Shown piece by piece: positions 14,347 to 21,573 of a DNA stretch of 33,894 nt. Under the pieces are notes generated by a model. The model did no database searches. It worked only from the letters and a program-made list of their open reading frames with translations, and had not been told where the DNA came from. The stretch is from an uncultured Clostridium sp. (GTDB lineage: Bacteria; Bacillota; Clostridia; Oscillospirales; CAG-272), in the NCBI GenBank assembly GCA_964564255.1, contig CAZMAZ010000003.1, forward strand, positions 1 to 33,894, read 5' to 3'. The position numbers and the translations under genes are program-made. Position 1 is the first letter of the stretch. Each line of letters opens with the position of its first letter.

Positions 14347-14470
14347 AACCCCTCCGGCAGCAAAAACTCAATACTATATTATCGGTCTGCATATTTTTTG
14401 CATTTTCGAGCAAAATAATAGCAGTCATTTATTCACTGCATCAACTAAAAATGAAAAGAGAGGAAACCTT

Positions 14471-14926
14471 ATGTATCACGACCGTTTTTTTCGTATTTTG
14501 CTATGTGTGCTTTGCTCTTTCACTTTGATTCTTATTTTCTGCGTATCCCACGGTATTCGCACTATGGAAGAGGAAAATGCATTGACACGTAAAACGGCAT
14601 ACAGTGCCGCTCTCTCAATCCAGCGAGAGTTAAAAGCCGCGTGTACAACAAATTCCACATCGGAAACAATCGAAAATGCCCAAAATTCCGAAAATATTCC
14701 GACAGAAGAGGATGCCGAAAACAATCCTTCAACAAACACCTCGTTTTGGATTTTGCGCGAGCAGGACGGAATTCTCTGCGTATTTGATCAATTCGGAACA
14801 CTTACACGGAATGTCGGCACCTCTACCGCCCTTCTGCCGCCGGCAGACCGCGAAGCATTACGAAACGGGATTCGGGTTGAAAGCGAACAGGAGCTGGCTG
14901 AAAAAATCGGAGATTTAACGACCTAA
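14471..14926 (+). CDS. Hypothetical N-terminally membrane-anchored protein
   Basis: 151 aa. A GAGAGGAAA ribosome-binding site lies 5 nt before the ATG. There is one N-terminal hydrophobic helix. I recognised no family. Confidence 0.55.
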   Translation: MYHDRFFRILLCVLCSFTLILIFCVSHGIRTMEEENALTRKTAYSAALSIQRELKAACTTNSTSETIENAQNSENIPTEEDAENNPSTNTSFWILREQDGILCVFDQFGTLTRNVGTSTALLPPADREALRNGIRVESEQELAEKIGDLTT

Positions 14927-15010
14927 TTTTAAAAGGACACCTCTCATAATACAATGCTCGTCCGACATGCGGAAAATTTTTAGAGGTGCCCCCAAAAAAG
15001 AAAAAAAACA

Positions 15011-15050
15011 CCGAACAAATCCGCTCTTAAGTCAAAACGGATTTGTTCGG
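15011..15050. terminator. Bidirectional rho-independent terminator (ends the helicase operon and the convergent plus-strand gene)
   Basis: A 13-bp perfect stem pairs CCGAACAAATCCG with CGGATTTGTTCGG. It is flanked by A8 on the 5' side and CATTTTAT on the 3' side. Confidence 0.7.
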
Positions 15051-15097
15051 CATTTTATATGACAGACTTTGGATCCTCTGCAGCAATTGGTTATATG

Positions 15098-17335
15098 TCA
15101 AAAATCGTTTTGCATCTCCAAAACCCGTTTTTCCGCCTCATCTGCGCGCAATCGATCTTCCGCATATGCGTGGCGAAGCAGCTCCGCGGGAATCAGACGG
15201 TCATACTTTTCAAAAACAGGTGTTTCGGCGGCACCGACCAACGTATACGGATCAATTCCGTCGATCTGCACTTTTTGCACCAATGCCTGTATCAGAGAAG
15301 ACGCGTCCCCTCTTTCCATACGAAAAGTCATATAGTAACATCCTTCAAATTCCAATTGACTGATGCGAAAGGAACGCGCATTTGCCAAAAGAAATTTGCG
15401 TAATGTGCGGAAAGAACGCGTTCCAAGCCACGGAAACAGGCAATATGTATATCCACCCAGCCCGACAAGATGCTTTTTGTGCAAGCCGGCATTGCGAAAT
15501 ACATGTCTTGCCGCTTCCAATCGCTTTTGTGCATTCGGTTTGAGATACGGATAAACAATATCTTCTTCCAAAACACGGCGCATCCGTTCCAGGATTTTGG
15601 TGTGAATTTCACCGAAATCTCCCGGCCATGATATTTCCATCTTCCCTTCGACCCTGTGAACATAAACCAACCTTCGCGACAGATCCAATTCCTCCACTTC
15701 CCAAACGCGCCCCGCCAAGGCAAAGCGATCTCCGATCGGAGGTGGCGTTGTAATGGTTCCAATCTGATCCGAACCGCAATTAACGGTAAAATCCTCGCTT
15801 TCCTTGAAAACCGCGTAGAATTTAAAACTTTTGAGAAGCCGTTCTCCCGCAAGTCCAATCAGCACCCCTTTTTCTTCGGTCATCTCCAGGTACTCGTTTT
15901 CAAGCATTGACAGAAGCAATGTTCGATACTCTTCTCGCGGAACATCGACAAAAGGAGGCATAGAAAGAACCGTTTCCGCCAAACGACGCGGCGTCATTTC
16001 CCCCGCAGCGGCAAGTACACTGAGTGTTTGTTGAAACAAAAGACTGTAGGGCCGTTTTTTTCGAACGGGCGGTTCGATAAACCGTTCTTCTATATACAGC
16101 TGAATAATGGCAATTCCCCGTAAAAGCTCCCACGGAATCCGCTGTGGCAACGGCGTATTCGGCAACGGATCTTCCTCGCGAAAAACCATCATCATTTCCG
16201 GCACCTGTCCACGTCTGCCGGAACGTCCGAGCCGTTGCAAAAAACTGCTGACCGAATTGGGCGCTTCCGCCTGCAAAACACGTTCAAGCCTTCCAATGTC
16301 GATACCGAGCTCCATGGTTACGGTGGCGCAAGTCACCGCAAAAACATCCTCGTCCTTCATTTTCAATTCTGCCTCTTCACGTAAAGCGGCAGACAGGTTG
16401 CCATGATGAATCAGAAAGACATCGGGATCACCGCGCATTTTGGCAATCTGTCGAAAGGTGGCGCAAAGATATTCGGTTTCTTCTCTGGAATTGGAAAAAA
16501 CCAAGGATTTTCGATCGCGCACACAGTCATACATATACTCATATCCGGCATCCAGTGTCGCGACTGCAGACTGATTGCTTTTTTCCTGTTTTTCCGGCTC
16601 CTCCGTCTGCTGTGCTTTGGGATTTTGTATGTAAAAATGCTCCATTCCCAAACGCCAATGAATTCGTTCCTGAGAAAGAGTCGGACAATCGGTCAAATTC
16701 CCTGTTCCGGCGCTTAACCAATCGGCGGCAATTTGCGGGTCCCCAACCGTTGCGGAAAGACCGATGCGGCGCGGATGATAACCAATCGCCCGTGCTATTC
16801 GGAAAAGTTGACACATAATTTGGTTGCCGCGATCGGTGCCCGTCAGCGTGTGAATCTCGTCAATCACGACAAAGCGCAAAGAACCGAACAACCGTATCAA
16901 ATCATTTGAGCGATTGATCAGCATGGATTCAAGCGATTCGGGCGTAATTTGCAAAACGCCGCGCGGTTGCTCCAACAGCTTCTTTTTATGCGACATGGTT
17001 ACATCTCCGTGCCAATGTGTCACCGGAATACCGCTTTGTACAAGCAATTCTTCAATTCGAGCAAATTGGTCGTTAATCAAAGATTTCAAAGGTGCGATAT
17101 AGAGAACACCGACCGTTTGCGGCATTTGCTCGCAAAGAAGAGAAAGAATCGGAAAAAAAGCCGCTTCGGTCTTTCCGCTCGCCGTCGATGAGTGTAAAAG
17201 CAAATGATGATCGGTTTCAAAAATCGTCTTTGCCGCAAACAATTGAACTTCACGCAAAGAATCCCACTCATGTGCATAAATGTATTCACGAACAAAGGGC
17301 GGGAATCGCAAGAAAATGCGATCAGCTTCTGTCAT
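15098..17335 (-). CDS. Lhr-like DEAD/DEAH-box SF2 helicase (helicase component of the Shango-type system)
   Basis: Walker A is SSTASGKT (GKT at 17168-17176) and motif II is DEIH (16850-16861). Motif III GLSATV and motif VI QRLGRSGRRG are also present. About 355 aa of C-terminal non-core region follow. A GAGGAA ribosome-binding site lies 7 nt upstream of the ATG, and the start overlaps the upstream gene by 14 nt. Confidence 0.9.
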   Translation of the reverse strand: MTEADRIFLRFPPFVREYIYAHEWDSLREVQLFAAKTIFETDHHLLLHSSTASGKTEAAFFPILSLLCEQMPQTVGVLYIAPLKSLINDQFARIEELLVQSGIPVTHWHGDVTMSHKKKLLEQPRGVLQITPESLESMLINRSNDLIRLFGSLRFVVIDEIHTLTGTDRGNQIMCQLFRIARAIGYHPRRIGLSATVGDPQIAADWLSAGTGNLTDCPTLSQERIHWRLGMEHFYIQNPKAQQTEEPEKQEKSNQSAVATLDAGYEYMYDCVRDRKSLVFSNSREETEYLCATFRQIAKMRGDPDVFLIHHGNLSAALREEAELKMKDEDVFAVTCATVTMELGIDIGRLERVLQAEAPNSVSSFLQRLGRSGRRGQVPEMMMVFREEDPLPNTPLPQRIPWELLRGIAIIQLYIEERFIEPPVRKKRPYSLLFQQTLSVLAAAGEMTPRRLAETVLSMPPFVDVPREEYRTLLLSMLENEYLEMTEEKGVLIGLAGERLLKSFKFYAVFKESEDFTVNCGSDQIGTITTPPPIGDRFALAGRVWEVEELDLSRRLVYVHRVEGKMEISWPGDFGEIHTKILERMRRVLEEDIVYPYLKPNAQKRLEAARHVFRNAGLHKKHLVGLGGYTYCLFPWLGTRSFRTLRKFLLANARSFRISQLEFEGCYYMTFRMERGDASSLIQALVQKVQIDGIDPYTLVGAAETPVFEKYDRLIPAELLRHAYAEDRLRADEAEKRVLEMQNDF

Positions 17336-18026
17336 GCGCAGATTCCTCTGTCAAATAACGATAAACTTCCCCATTTGTCATACATACCACACGATCTTTG
17401 GCGGCGGCAACCGATGCAAAAAACGCTTCTGCACGATCCCATGAGGCATACTTGTCCATTTCAAACGAATGCGTCCACGTATAAAACAGCCGAACACCGT
17501 CCTCGGCGTCGCCGGTTTGGTCCGATTCGGTTAAAAACTGCTCCCAAAGTGCCTCCAGGGCAGGATCTTCCATTTTACATGTGGGGTTCCATAAAAGAAA
17601 CTCATCGGGAGAACCAAACCGATGCGTTGACTCGGTCGAACGTGCCCACAAAATCCCACAATCTCTTGTAAGCGCCACTACACGGCTGTCAACGGCAATA
17701 TGTCCGTAGGGATACGCCATACCTGTAATTGCCTGTCCGGAAAGCGCTTCCAGTCGCACTTTATCCTCGGCAATTTCATACCGTATCCGATCGTCATCGC
17801 AGGTCGTCAGATGCGGGTGCGTCACCGTGTGAACGGCAACTTCATGTCCCGCATACAGCGAACGAATTTCGTCTGCTCGAACATGAGTTCCCTCTTTACC
17901 GGGTTGAACCAAAGAACCGGAATTCAGGTTAAAGGTTCCGCACAGTCCGTATTGATTCAAAAGTGCCACCAAGCGACGGTCTTGGAAGGATCCGTCGTCA
18001 AAGCTAAAGGTAATAATGCGTTTCAT
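17322..18026 (-). CDS. Polysaccharide deacetylase family protein (CE4 / NodB homology domain)
   Basis: Motif 1 is SFDDG (17991-18005) and motif 2 is HTVTH (17817-17831). AYPYG and THS resemble motifs 3 and 5. The protein has no signal peptide. The ribosome-binding site is AAAGGAGAA. Confidence 0.85.
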   Translation of the reverse strand: MKRIITFSFDDGSFQDRRLVALLNQYGLCGTFNLNSGSLVQPGKEGTHVRADEIRSLYAGHEVAVHTVTHPHLTTCDDDRIRYEIAEDKVRLEALSGQAITGMAYPYGHIAVDSRVVALTRDCGILWARSTESTHRFGSPDEFLLWNPTCKMEDPALEALWEQFLTESDQTGDAEDGVRLFYTWTHSFEMDKYASWDRAEAFFASVAAAKDRVVCMTNGEVYRYLTEESAHDRS

Positions 18027-18050
18027 TTTTTGTTCTCCTTTATTGTTTGT

Positions 18051-19481
18051 TCAAAATTGAATATCTTCCGGTGTATATACCTTTTGCGTTCGATCCCCTT
18101 TTGCGCTTGCGGCTTCCGAATCCGCAAAATGATTTGCGCTTTTGTCGTCCTTTTCACTGTCAGACGAACTTGCATGCGGGACGGCGTCGCGCACAACTTC
18201 CGAAAAGACAGCATTCGGATTTTGCATTAAAATATTGAGAACCGTCATATAATCTCTCAACATCTCTCGCGGCGTAATCATACTGTCGGCACCTGCGCGG
18301 GACAGGCAAAGTCGTAAAAATGAAATTTGGTCGTCCGTGCCGATATGTGTGGACGGATCCCATGTATAATACTGCGCATAAAGCATGGTTATGCGCTGAA
18401 TCAAGGCAAGCAATTCATCGTCCGAAAGCCGTCGCAAACGGATGACGGGGCCTATCAAATTTTTAAAGCCGTCCAACGCAAAACGACTGTCACATAAACG
18501 GGAACGCAATGCCTCGTAGCTGAATAATCCCCGCCTTGTGTCTTCCAAAAACTGCGGTGTGCCCGCAAAGAGAATTCCCAGCCCTTGCGCACGCCCTTGC
18601 AAGGTATCATTGAACATCGACAAAATTTTTTCATAATTATTTTCCCGACTGACACGATGACTGATCTTATAGAGATTAACACACTCATCAATAAAAACAA
18701 TCAAGCCGCGATACCCCATACGGCGCGCCAATGCTGCCCAGAGTTTAAGAAAATCATACCAATTATCATCATCGATAATGGTAGAAACAGATATTCCGAT
18801 TTCTCTGCGGGCTTCGGTTTTGGTTGTATATTCGCCGCGGAACCAACGCAAGCATGCACTCATACGCGCGTCCGCTTCTGCGTCCCCTTGCCGATATGCG
18901 CGATAATAGGTAATCATCACCTGCGCAAAATCAAACCCGCCAACCAAAAATTCCATTTCGCGCATTTCCTCGGTCACAAGCCGATTCATTTCGGCGTCAA
19001 ACACGGCACTGTCGGGTGAAAATCCCGCGGAAAGCAATTGGCTTTGCAAAGACGTAATCCATTTGGCAATGATTTTTCGCAATGCACCGCCGTCCGGAGA
19101 GGCTTTGGAAGCCAGATTTTTCATAAGTTCACGGTAGGTCGCCACACCGTTGCCACCGGTTCCGTACAGGCGGCGTTCCGGCGACAGATCACAGTCCGCT
19201 GTCAAAAAATCGCGTTCCAATGCGTATCCGCGAATCAACTGAAGCAAAAAACTCTTCCCGCTTCCGTATCGCCCAATCAAAAAACGCATAGCGCCCCCGC
19301 CCTCATTTACCTGCTCAAGGTCGGAAAGCAATGCACTGATTTCATCTTGCCGTCCGATTGCAATATAGGGCGCGCCTTCCCGCGGTACAACGCCTGCGCT
19401 GACAGAAGCAAGCAAGGAAGCAAGTACCCGACGCGGCACCTGTTTGTATGACGCATTTTGTTGTTTTTCTACATTACTCAT
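18051..19481 (-). CDS. DUF2791 / BrxD-like P-loop ATPase (ATPase component of the Shango-type system)
   Basis: The sequence ...SAGVVPREGAPYIAIGRQDEISALLSDLEQV..GGGAMRFLIGRYGSGKSFLL... is DUF2791-like, with GSGKS at 19251-19265. Also present are DLSPERRLYG...TYRELMKNL and Walker B LIVFIDEC. The start overlaps the upstream stop as ATGA. Confidence 0.8.
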   Translation of the reverse strand: MSNVEKQQNASYKQVPRRVLASLLASVSAGVVPREGAPYIAIGRQDEISALLSDLEQVNEGGGAMRFLIGRYGSGKSFLLQLIRGYALERDFLTADCDLSPERRLYGTGGNGVATYRELMKNLASKASPDGGALRKIIAKWITSLQSQLLSAGFSPDSAVFDAEMNRLVTEEMREMEFLVGGFDFAQVMITYYRAYRQGDAEADARMSACLRWFRGEYTTKTEARREIGISVSTIIDDDNWYDFLKLWAALARRMGYRGLIVFIDECVNLYKISHRVSRENNYEKILSMFNDTLQGRAQGLGILFAGTPQFLEDTRRGLFSYEALRSRLCDSRFALDGFKNLIGPVIRLRRLSDDELLALIQRITMLYAQYYTWDPSTHIGTDDQISFLRLCLSRAGADSMITPREMLRDYMTVLNILMQNPNAVFSEVVRDAVPHASSSDSEKDDKSANHFADSEAASAKGDRTQKVYTPEDIQF

Positions 19482-21274
19482 TTCTCGTCCCCCAATTCCG
19501 TTTTCAATATTTCAATATAATCCGTAATCACCGCATATCCATTCTCTGTTTCTTCCAAAAGAATGTCTCCTATCTGCGGTAAAGAAAGTGCGACATCGTT
19601 AATCTCATCTGCAATCGCATCCTCCATAAAGCCTTGTTGTCGCGCCCACACGCTTGCCTCCTTTTGTCGTCCTTCCAAAAGCAGGTGCAGATACGGCTCC
19701 CACTTTGCAAGCAACGAAGGTTCGGTTTGCTCTGTTTCCTCGGAGCTGTCTGCAACCGCGATCGGTAGGGATTTGGTATCGGATACCGCGATCTGCGGTA
19801 AAAAATCAGGCAATTCTTCTTGCTTTTCGACTGTTTCCGATTGGTCAAATGCGCTTATCAGCTGTCTTGTCGTATCCCATGAATTTTCCTCAATCTGCAC
19901 TGCGTGTTCAACAGAAAGCGCGCGCATTGGCAAATCATACAGTTTTTCGTACGCCGGCGCTTCGGGTTCGCGCTCTTTTACTCGGCTTTTTTCGGGCAAT
20001 GCCTTTTGTAAATAGGCATCTGCCATCTCCTGCATAAAATTCGGCAAATTTCCAATGGAAAGCCGCGCCTTAATCCCGAGCGATATTCGAATTTTGTTCT
20101 CGGTATATTTGATTAAATCCGTTATCAAAAAACGTAATTCGTGAGACCGTGAAAAGGAATACGCATCAATCTCCAAATGTTTTTTGTGCTTCGCAGCACA
20201 GAGAACCCCCACGAAGGTATCGCGCTTATAGGTAATATCTTTTAGTCCTTTGATGGAAAAATGTCCGGTGGCATCGGTCATTTCCCGTATGCATGCGTGC
20301 AAAACGCCCTTAATAACCGTATCAAAAAGCGGTGCCGTATCGCTTGTGTAAAACTTGCTTTTCTTGTAGTTATAATTTGTGCAAAAGAAAAGTAGGGTTT
20401 GCACAAAACTGCCGTCGGGAGAATCTGTATCGGCACAATTCAAATAATATTCTCGCAAAGAAGAACCGGCAATCAATTCCCTGTTTTGTTCCTCCAAAAG
20501 AATCTTCGGAGCGGAAAGCCCGTGCATTAGCCCGAAATCGCAAATCCATTCCCGCATGTAATGAGAGATAAAAGGATGGTCGCGATAATAAGCAAGCCAA
20601 AGTGCGCAAAGTTGTTTTTGCGTCTCGCACGGCGGGATGCGATCGGAAAAATGAATCAATTCAAAAACATACAGCTGAATATAACTACTGTCGGTTTTCG
20701 GATACTGTTGCTTTCTGACACAGTCACGCCAAAACAAGTACCATGCAAGCTGTTTGGCATTCATTTGTGCATATTGAGGAACATAGGAGAAAAACGGTTC
20801 CGGTTCGCAAGGAGAACCGTGCGCTGTTAAAAGCCGTTCGCCGTTTTCACAAAATTGGTCAAAATAAGTGTATTTTGTCGGCCACGGATAAACACGAACC
20901 GTGTGAACCATGCTGCCATTCATTTCCCAAACACGCTCGGGAGGCTGCTTGCGTTTTTCTTCGTTCGCCGTATGTGGCGGAATATACCGAACAAACGCGG
21001 TTTTTTGAGATGCCTGCTCATCTGTTTCTTCTTTTCTTTGCTTTTCGGGAAAAGAGTTTTGTGTAATCGTTTCAAATGAAATTCGACCGCTTTCTGTTGC
21101 AGTGTTTGGATTTTTCTCGGCATCGCCATTCAAAACGGGATCCGCCATAATGTCAATCGCTTCTGTATCCTCTCGGCATACGGTCGTCTTTTTATTACGA
21201 GGCAGAAGGGCGTCAATGGTCCAAAAGGCATCCAGTTCTTCCTCTCTTTTTCTTTGATCGTCTTTCACACGCAT
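19478..21274 (-). CDS. TerB-N / TerB-C domain protein (SngA-like component of the Shango-type system)
   Basis: The TerB-N signature FFSYVPQYAQMNAKQLAWYLFWRDCVRKQQYPKTDSSYIQLYVFELIH falls around 20726-20794. The C-terminus is TerB-C-like (...QGFMEDAIADEINDVALSLPQIGDILLEETENGYAVITDYIEIL). I set the start at the ATG at 21272-21274, because the consensus promoter lies inside the longer ORF-track extension. Confidence 0.8.
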   Translation of the reverse strand: MRVKDDQRKREEELDAFWTIDALLPRNKKTTVCREDTEAIDIMADPVLNGDAEKNPNTATESGRISFETITQNSFPEKQRKEETDEQASQKTAFVRYIPPHTANEEKRKQPPERVWEMNGSMVHTVRVYPWPTKYTYFDQFCENGERLLTAHGSPCEPEPFFSYVPQYAQMNAKQLAWYLFWRDCVRKQQYPKTDSSYIQLYVFELIHFSDRIPPCETQKQLCALWLAYYRDHPFISHYMREWICDFGLMHGLSAPKILLEEQNRELIAGSSLREYYLNCADTDSPDGSFVQTLLFFCTNYNYKKSKFYTSDTAPLFDTVIKGVLHACIREMTDATGHFSIKGLKDITYKRDTFVGVLCAAKHKKHLEIDAYSFSRSHELRFLITDLIKYTENKIRISLGIKARLSIGNLPNFMQEMADAYLQKALPEKSRVKEREPEAPAYEKLYDLPMRALSVEHAVQIEENSWDTTRQLISAFDQSETVEKQEELPDFLPQIAVSDTKSLPIAVADSSEETEQTEPSLLAKWEPYLHLLLEGRQKEASVWARQQGFMEDAIADEINDVALSLPQIGDILLEETENGYAVITDYIEILKTELGDEK

Positions 21275-21307
21275 CCCCCTTTCCCCACAGCGTTTCTTTA
21301 TTATTTC

Positions 21308-21336
21308 ATTATAACACAATCTACGGTTAGTGTCAA
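21308..21336 (-). promoter_or_regulatory. Sigma-A consensus promoter of the TerB/ATPase/CE4/helicase operon
   Basis: The minus strand reads TTGACA ctaaccgtagattgtgt TATAAT. Both hexamers are perfect, the spacer is 17 nt, and there is an extended -10 TG. The -10 element is about 35 nt upstream of the ATG at 21274. Confidence 0.6.
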
Positions 21337-21573
21337 TTGCCTTTTTATTCGTTTTTCGGTTTTTCCCTTCATTTTTTCCTTGTCGACACCGTTTGCACCG
21401 CATATTAAAACCCCGCCCAACGCAAAACGCGTTCGAACGGGGTAATTTTATCATTCTATGAACCCACCGCATCTTTTCAATGCCTTGTCAAGCGTTTTTT
21501 GCGACAAAAAATACGAATCGGATTTGCACTTTTGCTTTTTTTGCATTTTTCGATTGTTTTCTCATTTTTTCTA

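Follow-up and report, generated by a model that had tools for sequence, protein, structure and literature searches.

The stretch of DNA analysed here (hereafter the window: 33,894 nucleotides of contig CAZMAZ010000003.1, assembly GCA_964564255.1, from an uncultured Clostridium sp.) contains a minus-strand operon that, to judge from its sequence, is a Shango anti-phage defence system with a fourth gene. Between sngB and sngC lies a gene for a deacetylase of carbohydrate esterase family 4 (CE4) with the NodB fold (17322..18026, minus strand; 234 amino acids), giving the order sngA-sngB-CE4-sngC. A first-pass annotation of the window had placed this gene inside a defence operon; the location was borne out, and the operon was identified as Shango with PADLOC. 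The arrangement is real and is inherited in a small lineage, and a role for the enzyme in defence is possible and unproven. We see about an even chance that the CE4 gene is dispensable cargo riding in the Shango operon, outside the core mechanism, and that it is kept for its enzymatic use to the host. We favour this reading because most sister systems lack the gene, the position that it occupies also takes unrelated genes, the enzyme is indistinguishable from its metabolic relatives, and three-gene Shango works elsewhere.

The CE4 gene and the sngB-sngC slot

All three Shango proteins are encoded around the CE4 gene, which interrupts their contiguity. SngA (19478..21274, minus strand) carries TerB_N and TerB_C domains (Pfam, 1.3e-16 and 2e-8; PADLOC SngA, 5.5e-45), SngB (18051..19481, minus strand) is a BrxC/BrxD-family (DUF2791) ATPase (Pfam BrxC_BrxD, 7e-154; PADLOC SngB, 7.5e-161), and SngC (15098..17335, minus strand) is an Lhr/BrxHI-like DEAD/DEAH helicase (Pfam DEAD and Helicase_C, with an additional weak match to the Lhr winged helix; PADLOC SngC, 2.2e-237). 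The window CE4 itself matched no PADLOC model. The CE4 gene, 705 bp long with an ATG start, is fitted closely into the sngB-sngC junction. A ribosome-binding site (AAGGAG, 18035..18040, minus strand), read from the sequence, starts 10 nt past the sngB stop codon (18051-18053) and lies 8 nt ahead of the CE4 ATG. At the other end, the last 14 nt of the gene (17322..17335, minus strand) overlap the start of sngC, the CE4 stop codon being 17322-17324 and the sngC start codon 17333-17335, and the ribosome-binding site of sngC (GAGGAA) falls within the CE4 coding sequence. In the orthologous operon of Clostridium sp. CAG:448 this overlap is 4 nt. The open reading frame (ORF) and both junctions, including the 14-nt overlap and the separate ribosome-binding site, are exactly as the first-pass annotation had described them. 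That the ORF arose by chance is excluded by its Pfam match, its 2049 homologues, a confident AlphaFold2 (AF2) model and the CE4 structures in the PDB that this model matches.

In a neighbour-joining tree of the 120 best CE4 matches (distance-based, no support values), the window CE4 forms one clade with five 90%-identity clusters, P0002, P0003, P0009, P0014 and P0016, which are 47-62% identical to it. All five lie directly after SngB and/or before SngC. The contexts are SngB-CE4-SngC for P0002, the end of SngB followed by CE4 for P0003, SngA-SngB-CE4 for P0014 and its cluster member P0138, SngA-SngB-CmpB-like-GH39-CE4 for P0016 and GH39-CE4-SngC for P0009; on the short contigs L164, L166-L168 and L181 the gene downstream of CE4 is out of view. 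The first-pass annotation had tied its case to an enrichment of the CE4 clade beside the neighbouring genes of the operon, and one sub-clade was indeed found exclusively in the slot. A general link between the CE4 family and Shango was rejected. None of four relatives outside the clade is near Shango, P0004 and P0007 lying between a HAD hydrolase and ComM, P0057 after a DUF188 gene and P0010 near VTC, CotH and GH28 genes, and no SngA, SngB or SngC was found near any of the 80 closest CE4-centred metagenome loci (36-45% identity).

The P0002 cluster includes the Clostridium sp. CAG:448 protein, which is listed in 226 index blocks. On six long CAG:448 contigs the four genes form the same operon, and they occupy the chromosomal site that they have in the window, with tadA, a methyltransferase gene, isocitrate dehydrogenase (IDH) and aconitase (Acn) on one side and PBP1 on the other, so that the four-gene operon predates the split of the two species. 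The CE4 ORF is intact in every copy seen. A population pN/pS of 0 for the CAG:448 gene was discarded as an artefact, since an exact match of the protein had served to retrieve the six loci.

Between the window and CAG:448 the amino-acid identity is 80-85% for SngB, 81% for SngC, 60% for CE4 and 50% for SngA, and in the flanking genes it is 76% for Acn, 84% for IDH and 66% for PBP1. In every pairing of four loci SngA is the least and SngB the most conserved of the three, with CE4 between them (SngA < CE4 < SngB); SngC is as conserved as SngB where the two can be compared, and the identity of CE4 tracks that of SngB (r=0.94, n=6 pairs). Because CE4 diverges in step with SngB, these comparisons suggest that a single capture of the gene, followed by co-inheritance with Shango, is most likely. 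In a neighbour-joining tree of SngB (no support values), L165 and L166, which bear CE4, belong to a sub-clade rich in other cargo, and the window is on a branch of its own; if the capture was ancestral, CE4 would have been lost or replaced many times since.

A scan with SngB of the GTDB species representatives returned 80 loci from metagenome-assembled genomes of gut Clostridia, Eubacteriales and Oscillospiraceae, with SngB 68-78% identical. This SngB-centred sample was built on exact peptide patterns and missed CAG:448, and so is no census. In none of the 70 sampled loci having both genes does CE4 lie between sngB and sngC, and within this sample the idea that CE4 is a common part of related Shango systems was rejected. 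The spacer between the two genes measures at most 143 nt in 59 of these loci, and in 11 of the 70 it is replaced by an insert of 0.9-1.7 kb of unrelated genes (for example L004:11405-12778, L007:11411-13089, L042:11373-12245 and L053:4240-5333). This cargo comprises a GH39-like glycosidase (L004, L010, L027), a CXXCG protein weakly like SitI6 immunity proteins (L007, L009, L011, L037, and at contig ends in L006 and L022), small ORFs with a membrane protein (L007, L012, L020, L037), a PHP phosphoesterase (L042) and a full-length EutH permease (L053, and at a contig end in L014). None of the cargo proteins matched a PADLOC model, which rules out a known defence annotation in that collection, and the cargo-bearing loci are concentrated in one SngB sub-clade. 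In the Shango of gut Clostridia, the junction of sngB and sngC acts as a slot for varying cargo.

Several other features of these loci were seen. The CXXCG protein is a recurring double-CXXCG protein of about 207 amino acids (L007:12066-12689, L011:6659-7279, L009:2205-2825, L037:11430-12050, L006:1793-2413) with matches below cutoff to TIGR02264 (6.4e-6) and Pfam Gmx_para_CXXCG (2.8e-5), both of the SitI6 immunity family. It is often joined by small ORFs of 93, 118 and 139 amino acids that belong to no known family, and the whole resembles an array of orphan immunity genes housed in a defence operon. At L008, L018, L051 and L055 the genes after sngA-sngB are housekeeping or unrelated ones (valS in L051), and several kb of downstream sequence contain no sngC; perhaps these Shango systems are truncated or in decay, or perhaps they represent a variant of two genes. 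Otherwise empty sngB-sngC spacers, and other places in the genomes, repeatedly contain a small palindromic element, AAGGAACTTCTT-TCAA-GAAGTTCCTT with a GGCAG...CTGCC hairpin after it (L015:9650-9725, L011:7339-7372, L065:2142-2189, L008:3591-3622, L050:18154-18191). Similar CTTTTTCAAAAG hairpins occur in the L029 and L033 spacers and a TTTTTTAAAA variant in L005. Such elements may be repeats of the REP (repetitive extragenic palindromic) type that promote insertion at the slot.

In two loci of the CE4 clade, L165 (4723-7654) and L171 (2-1126), a cytoplasmic GH39-like glycosidase with an intact NEP motif stands directly upstream of CE4. In L165 this pair is preceded by a CmpB-like membrane protein and followed by a signal-peptide-bearing Metallophos surface protein, and SngC was not found on that 10.3-kb contig. 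The GH39-like protein has no signal peptide and keeps the W-N-E-P acid/base motif of clan GH-A. Its family is very common in gut Clostridia, with more than 6270 matches, many of them 55-61% identical and including an annotated Acetatifactor GH39. That the two genes came as a pre-existing metabolic cassette is unsupported, as they are never adjacent in the 80 non-Shango CE4 loci.

A long form of CE4 from the same family (283-302 amino acids) lies between valS and sngA, on the Shango strand, at L005:4416-5267 and L007:6924-7832, and in L037 and L021 valS adjoins sngA directly. The two long-form genes are orthologous (84% identity) and therefore count as one event in 80 loci; we estimated this to be within chance expectation, and the adjacency, considered as a second association of CE4 with Shango, is probably due to chance.

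The CE4 protein and its family

The window protein matches Pfam PF01522 (Polysacc_deac_1) over residues 2-124 with 67.1 bits against a cutoff of 23.1 (E=1.9e-18). An AF2 model built from a 65-sequence alignment is a distorted (beta/alpha) barrel with a mean pLDDT of 93.4 and a pTM of 0.91. A Foldseek search of the PDB with this model gave 73 matches at E<=1e-3, the top 32 of which are all CE4-type deacetylases or esterases; the best have E values of about 3e-9, TM-scores of 0.5-0.72 and identities of at most 25%. The assignment to CE4 made in the first-pass annotation was thus upheld by the predicted structure. The top match is BA3943, a CE4 pseudoenzyme, and the third best is ArnD; the acetylxylan esterases 7fbw, 7ax7, 2cc0 and 2c71 are also among the matches, as are chitin and peptidoglycan deacetylases.

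The motifs named in the first-pass annotation all lie at the coordinates given there. Motif 1 (S8-F-D10-D11-G12, SFDDG, residues 8-12) fits the pattern (T/S)FDDG and is encoded at 17991..18005 on the minus strand, and its D10 and D11 are invariant in 65 of 65 sequences; we take D10 to be the catalytic base and D11 a metal ligand, as in established CE4 enzymes (SpPgdA, PDB 2c1g). Motif 2 (H66-T-V-T-H70, HTVTH, residues 66-70; 17817..17831, minus strand) fits the pattern H(S/T)xxH, aligns with H-T-W-D-H of 8hfa and supplies two further metal ligands, both histidines being invariant in the family alignment. At the motif-3-like AYPYG (residues 104-108; 17703..17717, minus strand) the arginine of the canonical R(P/x)PY, which orients the catalytic base, is replaced by alanine, the window enzyme having M-A104-Y-P-Y-G where 8hfa has M-R-P-P-Y. 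Alanine at this position is at least 90% conserved and is a feature of the whole family, in which the invariant R129 may stand in for the missing arginine. The THS at residues 185-187 (17466..17474, minus strand) contains H186 (17469..17471, minus strand), the invariant histidine of W-x-H-S-F-E and the equivalent of motif 5, which by analogy is probably the catalytic acid; the AF2 model places it on barrel strand E178-186. Altogether 15 residues are invariant in the 65-sequence alignment (T6, S8, D10, D11, D16, T31, F32, E62, H66, H70, R129, W184, H186, E189 and W196), and all of them are kept in the window CE4 and in all six members of the Shango-slot clade. Since the family shows no variation in its three metal ligands (D11/H66/H70), in the base D10 or in H186, the probable acid, the window CE4 looks catalytically competent, in agreement with the intact triad claimed in the first-pass annotation.

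The protein is, by its sequence, cytoplasmic. No signal peptide or membrane segment was found in it (maximum 19-residue Kyte-Doolittle hydropathy 0.96), as had been noted earlier, and there is no room for a signal peptide because the catalytic motif begins at residue 8, within the first strand (E2-10). With the barrel starting at residue 2, an ordinary secreted cell-wall deacetylase is ruled out. The first-pass annotation had regarded an intracellular CE4 enzyme as unusual, on the ground that these enzymes are normally secreted. This does not hold for the family in question, in which every inspected member among about 2000 lacks a signal peptide. Among CE4 enzymes, NodB and HfsH are in any case classical examples of a cytoplasmic location, and ArnD works on the cytoplasmic face of the membrane. 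The window protein is none of the named equivalogs NodB, HfsH, PgdA, PdaA or PdaB, as all NCBIfam scores fall far under the curated cutoffs (HfsH, 49.3 bits against 400, 4.8e-13; NodB, 37.3 against 240, 1.9e-9; the others lower).

The wider family points to carbohydrate metabolism. The neighbours of the 80 non-Shango CE4 loci are heterogeneous and often carbohydrate-metabolic, including Acyl_transf_3, GH2, GDSL and SASA esterases, GH88, GH127 and lacto-N-biose phosphorylase. Members of about 280 amino acids differ from the shorter ones by a C-terminal extension. A profile search of 1.84 billion representatives gave 17357 CE4 relatives, and ten of the long proteins among the best 150 were scanned with Pfam. 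The fusion partners were a second CE4 domain, SGNH/GDSL esterases, an alpha/beta-hydrolase esterase, an AraC-type regulator, Big_2 and a kinase-like AAA_33; the best 150 of the 17357 included no protein in which CE4 is joined to a helicase, an ATPase or TerB, and a domain fusion of CE4 with Shango was rejected on that basis. Given the fusion partners, the lack of signal peptides and the structural relatives, the family is most economically read as an intracellular esterase/deacetylase for acetylated sugars. The Shango-slot members are hard to tell from the rest: of the 42 columns with a conservation of at least 90% they retain 37-41, they share a single weakly clade-specific substitution (A216M), and their isoelectric points (pI) are 5.0-5.2, as in the rest of the family, on which ground an adaptation to DNA binding was rejected.

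CE4-type folds were also met on viruses. The second-ranked PDB match, with the best TM-score (0.72), is 8qpg chain TA, a CE4-like turret protein of the Haloferax tailed virus 1 capsid, and the matches in BFVD are CE4 domains in phage tail proteins and lysins. The fold is thus commonly displayed on virions, though at no more than 21% identity to the window CE4. A phage or prophage origin of the gene was rejected: an IMG/VR search with the CE4 clade and the GH39-like protein gave no relevant matches, PHROGs gave none, the identity of the BFVD matches is at most 21%, and the flanking genes are housekeeping genes.

Possible roles of the embedded enzyme

Under the cargo reading, the CE4 gene would have been captured once from an abundant gut-Clostridia family of intracellular carbohydrate esterases, would have landed at the sngB-sngC position, the variable cargo slot of this Shango lineage, and would since have been inherited together with the Shango genes. 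It would be transcribed from the operon promoter, and its 3' end, which bears the ribosome-binding site and start codon of sngC, would couple the translation of the two genes. The enzyme itself, with a metal bound by D11, H66 and H70 and with D10 as base, would remove an acetyl group from a soluble acetylated sugar in the cytoplasm. Candidate substrates are an acetylated oligosaccharide or an amino sugar, and the chemistry would be the same as in the relatives outside Shango.

A number of points weigh against this reading. Genes embedded in defence operons are often defence-related, as is prrC inside the EcoprrI hsd operon. The CE4 gene is intact and in the slot down to 47-49% identity and in at least three chromosomal neighbourhoods (acn/PBP1, rplQ and esterase/DHQS), and it has therefore been under selection while inside Shango. 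Two cytoplasmic carbohydrate-active enzymes, the GH39-like protein and CE4, occur in the same slot and stand together in L165 and L171. No effector of Shango has been recognised, and a fourth gene that encodes an enzyme suggests itself for that part. Lastly, CE4 (60%) has diverged faster than the flanking housekeeping genes (66-84%) and than SngB and SngC, and so has the presumed sensor SngA (50%); relaxed constraint and an arms race would account for this pattern equally well.

Much of this would be explained if the CE4, together with the GH39-like glycosidase where present, were a true accessory or effector of a Shango subtype, acting with SngABC during infection, a proposal that we consider a serious one and yet unlikely. 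CE4 could strip acetyl or sugar groups off modified phage DNA so that the helicase/ATPase machinery can engage it, or it could destroy acetylated cell-wall precursors (UDP-GlcNAc, lipid II) and arrest growth as in abortive infection. The slot-exclusive clade, retained at such divergence in all five clusters besides the window, is consistent with a function of this kind, and so are the translational coupling to sngC suggested by the overlap, the rapid evolution that CE4 shares with SngA, and the fact that the mechanism and effector of Shango are unknown (10.1101/2025.09.30.679545; 10.1101/2022.05.11.491447). It is hard to reconcile with the sister systems of the SngB-centred sample, where CE4 is found in 0 of 70 loci and the slot is empty in 59 and filled with unrelated cargo in 11; EutH, SitI6-like immunity proteins and small ORFs do not make a coherent effector set. 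The published Shango works as three genes (PMC10250203), CE4 has no PADLOC match, and no fusion to a Shango domain was seen among the best 150 of 17357 representatives. The fusion partners and neighbours of the family are carbohydrate-metabolic, and the slot enzymes show one weakly clade-specific residue and none of the basic shift in pI expected for DNA binding.

The narrower claim that CE4 and the GH39-like protein, which share the slot and occur side by side in L165 and L171, truly form an enzymatic module, accessory or effector, of a Shango subtype in gut Clostridia we judge a little more doubtful again. The module would act by taking sugar or acetyl decorations off hypermodified phage DNA, or by breaking down acetylated cell-wall precursors to abort infection. 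For this claim and the broader one alike it counts that in the data examined the two occur together only inside Shango and that the GH39-like protein keeps its W-N-E-P motif and has no signal peptide. Against them, the L165 cargo persists beside SngA and SngB on a 10.3-kb contig on which no SngC was found.

It is improbable, in our estimation, that the enzyme instead remodels the cell envelope independently of Shango. Like HfsH and ArnD, a cytoplasmic CE4 could deacetylate a glycan precursor that is linked to a lipid or a nucleotide, and so alter a phage-receptor polysaccharide; protection would then act at the level of adsorption and would be co-located with Shango but mechanistically separate from it. 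The best partial NCBIfam matches of the window CE4 are indeed the cytoplasmic HfsH (4.8e-13) and NodB (1.9e-9), and ArnD ranks third among its structural matches. A CmpB-like membrane protein accompanies the GH39-like protein and CE4 in L165, and TerB proteins have been proposed to take part in membrane surveillance (10.1101/2022.05.11.491447). The NCBIfam scores are nevertheless far under the cutoffs (HfsH, 49 against 400 bits), CE4 has no membrane anchor, the operon contains no glycosyltransferase or flippase genes, and the neighbours and fusion partners of the family point to catabolic esterases.

Least of all do we expect CE4 to be without catalytic activity, as a pseudoenzyme or scaffold, or its gene to be a passenger in decay: its closest PDB match is the pseudoenzyme BA3943, the motif-3 arginine is missing, G185 (at least 90% conserved, beside the catalytic histidine) is T or A in three of the six Shango-clade members and the clade deviates slightly more at conserved columns (mean 2.0 against 1.1, p=0.04), but the arginine is lost family-wide and may be substituted by the invariant R129, the ORF is intact in every copy seen, and without selection all six members would keep 15 of 15 invariant residues with a probability of about 5e-4 at 60% identity, and with a smaller one at 49%.

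The operon and its relation to known systems

The four genes are bracketed by a promoter-like and a terminator-like site. The promoter-like site (21308..21336, minus strand) is of the sigma-70 type, TTGACA-17 nt-TATAAT with a TG extension, and matches both hexamers at 12 of 12 positions, a match to the consensus only. A hairpin resembling an intrinsic terminator (15007..15054, minus strand), with a 20-bp stem followed by a T run, lies 44 nt past the sngC stop codon, and no terminator-like site of comparable strength was found between the two. The mechanical ORF of sngA reaches 21472 and would encode 664 amino acids. Its probable start is the ATG at 21274-21272, which is preceded by a GGGGAAAGGGGG ribosome-binding site and gives a protein of 599 amino acids; the CAG:448 orthologue has 595. 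With the promoter falling inside the mechanical ORF and a likely start at 21274, the first 66 codons (21275-21472) are probably untranslated. The sngA and sngB genes overlap by 4 nt. Since the promoter and terminator bracket the genes, no strong terminator lies between them and CE4 overlaps sngC, co-transcription of all four is plausible on sequence grounds. The stoichiometric co-expression proposed in the first-pass annotation is supported to this extent, its claim of stoichiometry being unsupported. The operon is flanked by the aconitase and IDH genes on one side and a class A penicillin-binding protein gene on the other, and Rfam and tRNA scans of the window found nothing. At the downstream edge, sngC is separated in CAG:448 from a small ORF before PBP1 by two extra genes, one for an ApbA ketopantoate reductase and one for a class IV aminotransferase (L175:12908-15435); the window (14347-15097) is without them, indicating an insertion or deletion at this edge of the Shango locus.

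Shango itself is a known and validated defence system, and what is new here is a four-gene, inherited variant of it whose extra gene encodes an intact enzyme with predicted translational coupling to the helicase. Depending on the role of CE4, the variant could reveal a new kind of defence chemistry or show that defence operons can stably carry unrelated metabolic genes. If the accessory or effector module were real, it would be the first case of carbohydrate-active enzymes at work within an anti-phage system built on a helicase and an ATPase, and it would give Shango its first candidate effector chemistry. The varied cargo of the slot bears on "guilt by embedding", the assumption that a gene inside a defence operon is a defence gene. 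It also has a practical side, as annotation pipelines that expect three adjacent Shango genes may split or miss cargo-bearing loci. The literature searched contained no paper linking Shango, DUF2791 or TerB-N with a polysaccharide deacetylase.

The closest known system is Shango (Millman et al. 2022, 10.1101/2022.05.11.491447; Johnson et al. 2023, PMC10250203), all three components of which are present in the window in canonical order and on one strand. The system was characterised, and found protective, with three genes (PMC10250203; 10.1101/2022.05.11.491447); the systems for which protection against phage has been demonstrated are those of E. coli and P. aeruginosa only (PMC10250203). The published systems, and those found on three Bacillota plasmids, are contiguous in the order A-B-C, whereas in the window CE4 fills the sngB-sngC junction and overlaps sngC. 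There is also a likeness to BREX, in that SngB resembles BrxD (PADLOC, 2e-48; NCBIfam, 2.7e-47) and SngC resembles BrxHI (2.3e-123). The BrxD match, however, is under the NCBIfam cutoff (162 against 350 bits), the Shango models score far higher, and no large PglX-like or PglZ-like ORFs were found in the window.

With NodB, HfsH and ArnD the window CE4 shares the NodB-homology fold, the lack of a signal peptide and a metal site of Asp-Asp and His-x3-His. It differs from them in scoring far under the equivalog cutoffs, in its identity of at most 25% to any solved structure, in the change of the motif-3 Arg to Ala and in the absence of nod, hfs or arn genes around it. The CE4 acetylxylan esterases and the intracellular multi-esterase proteins of glycan-degrading Firmicutes offer another comparison, with structural matches to the former, fusions of the family to SGNH/GDSL and alpha/beta-hydrolase esterases, and family members adjoining GH2, GH88, GH127 and SASA genes. 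In contrast to these, the window copy lies in a defence operon and not in a glycan-utilisation locus. For the genetic arrangement, the nearest parallel is prrC within the EcoprrI type Ic restriction-modification operon, an extra gene that lies between defence genes and is co-inherited with them, and whose product, PrrC, is a nuclease functionally coupled to its host system. The embedded gene of the window comes instead from a metabolic enzyme family, and the likeness consists in its insertion between defence genes and its co-inheritance with them.

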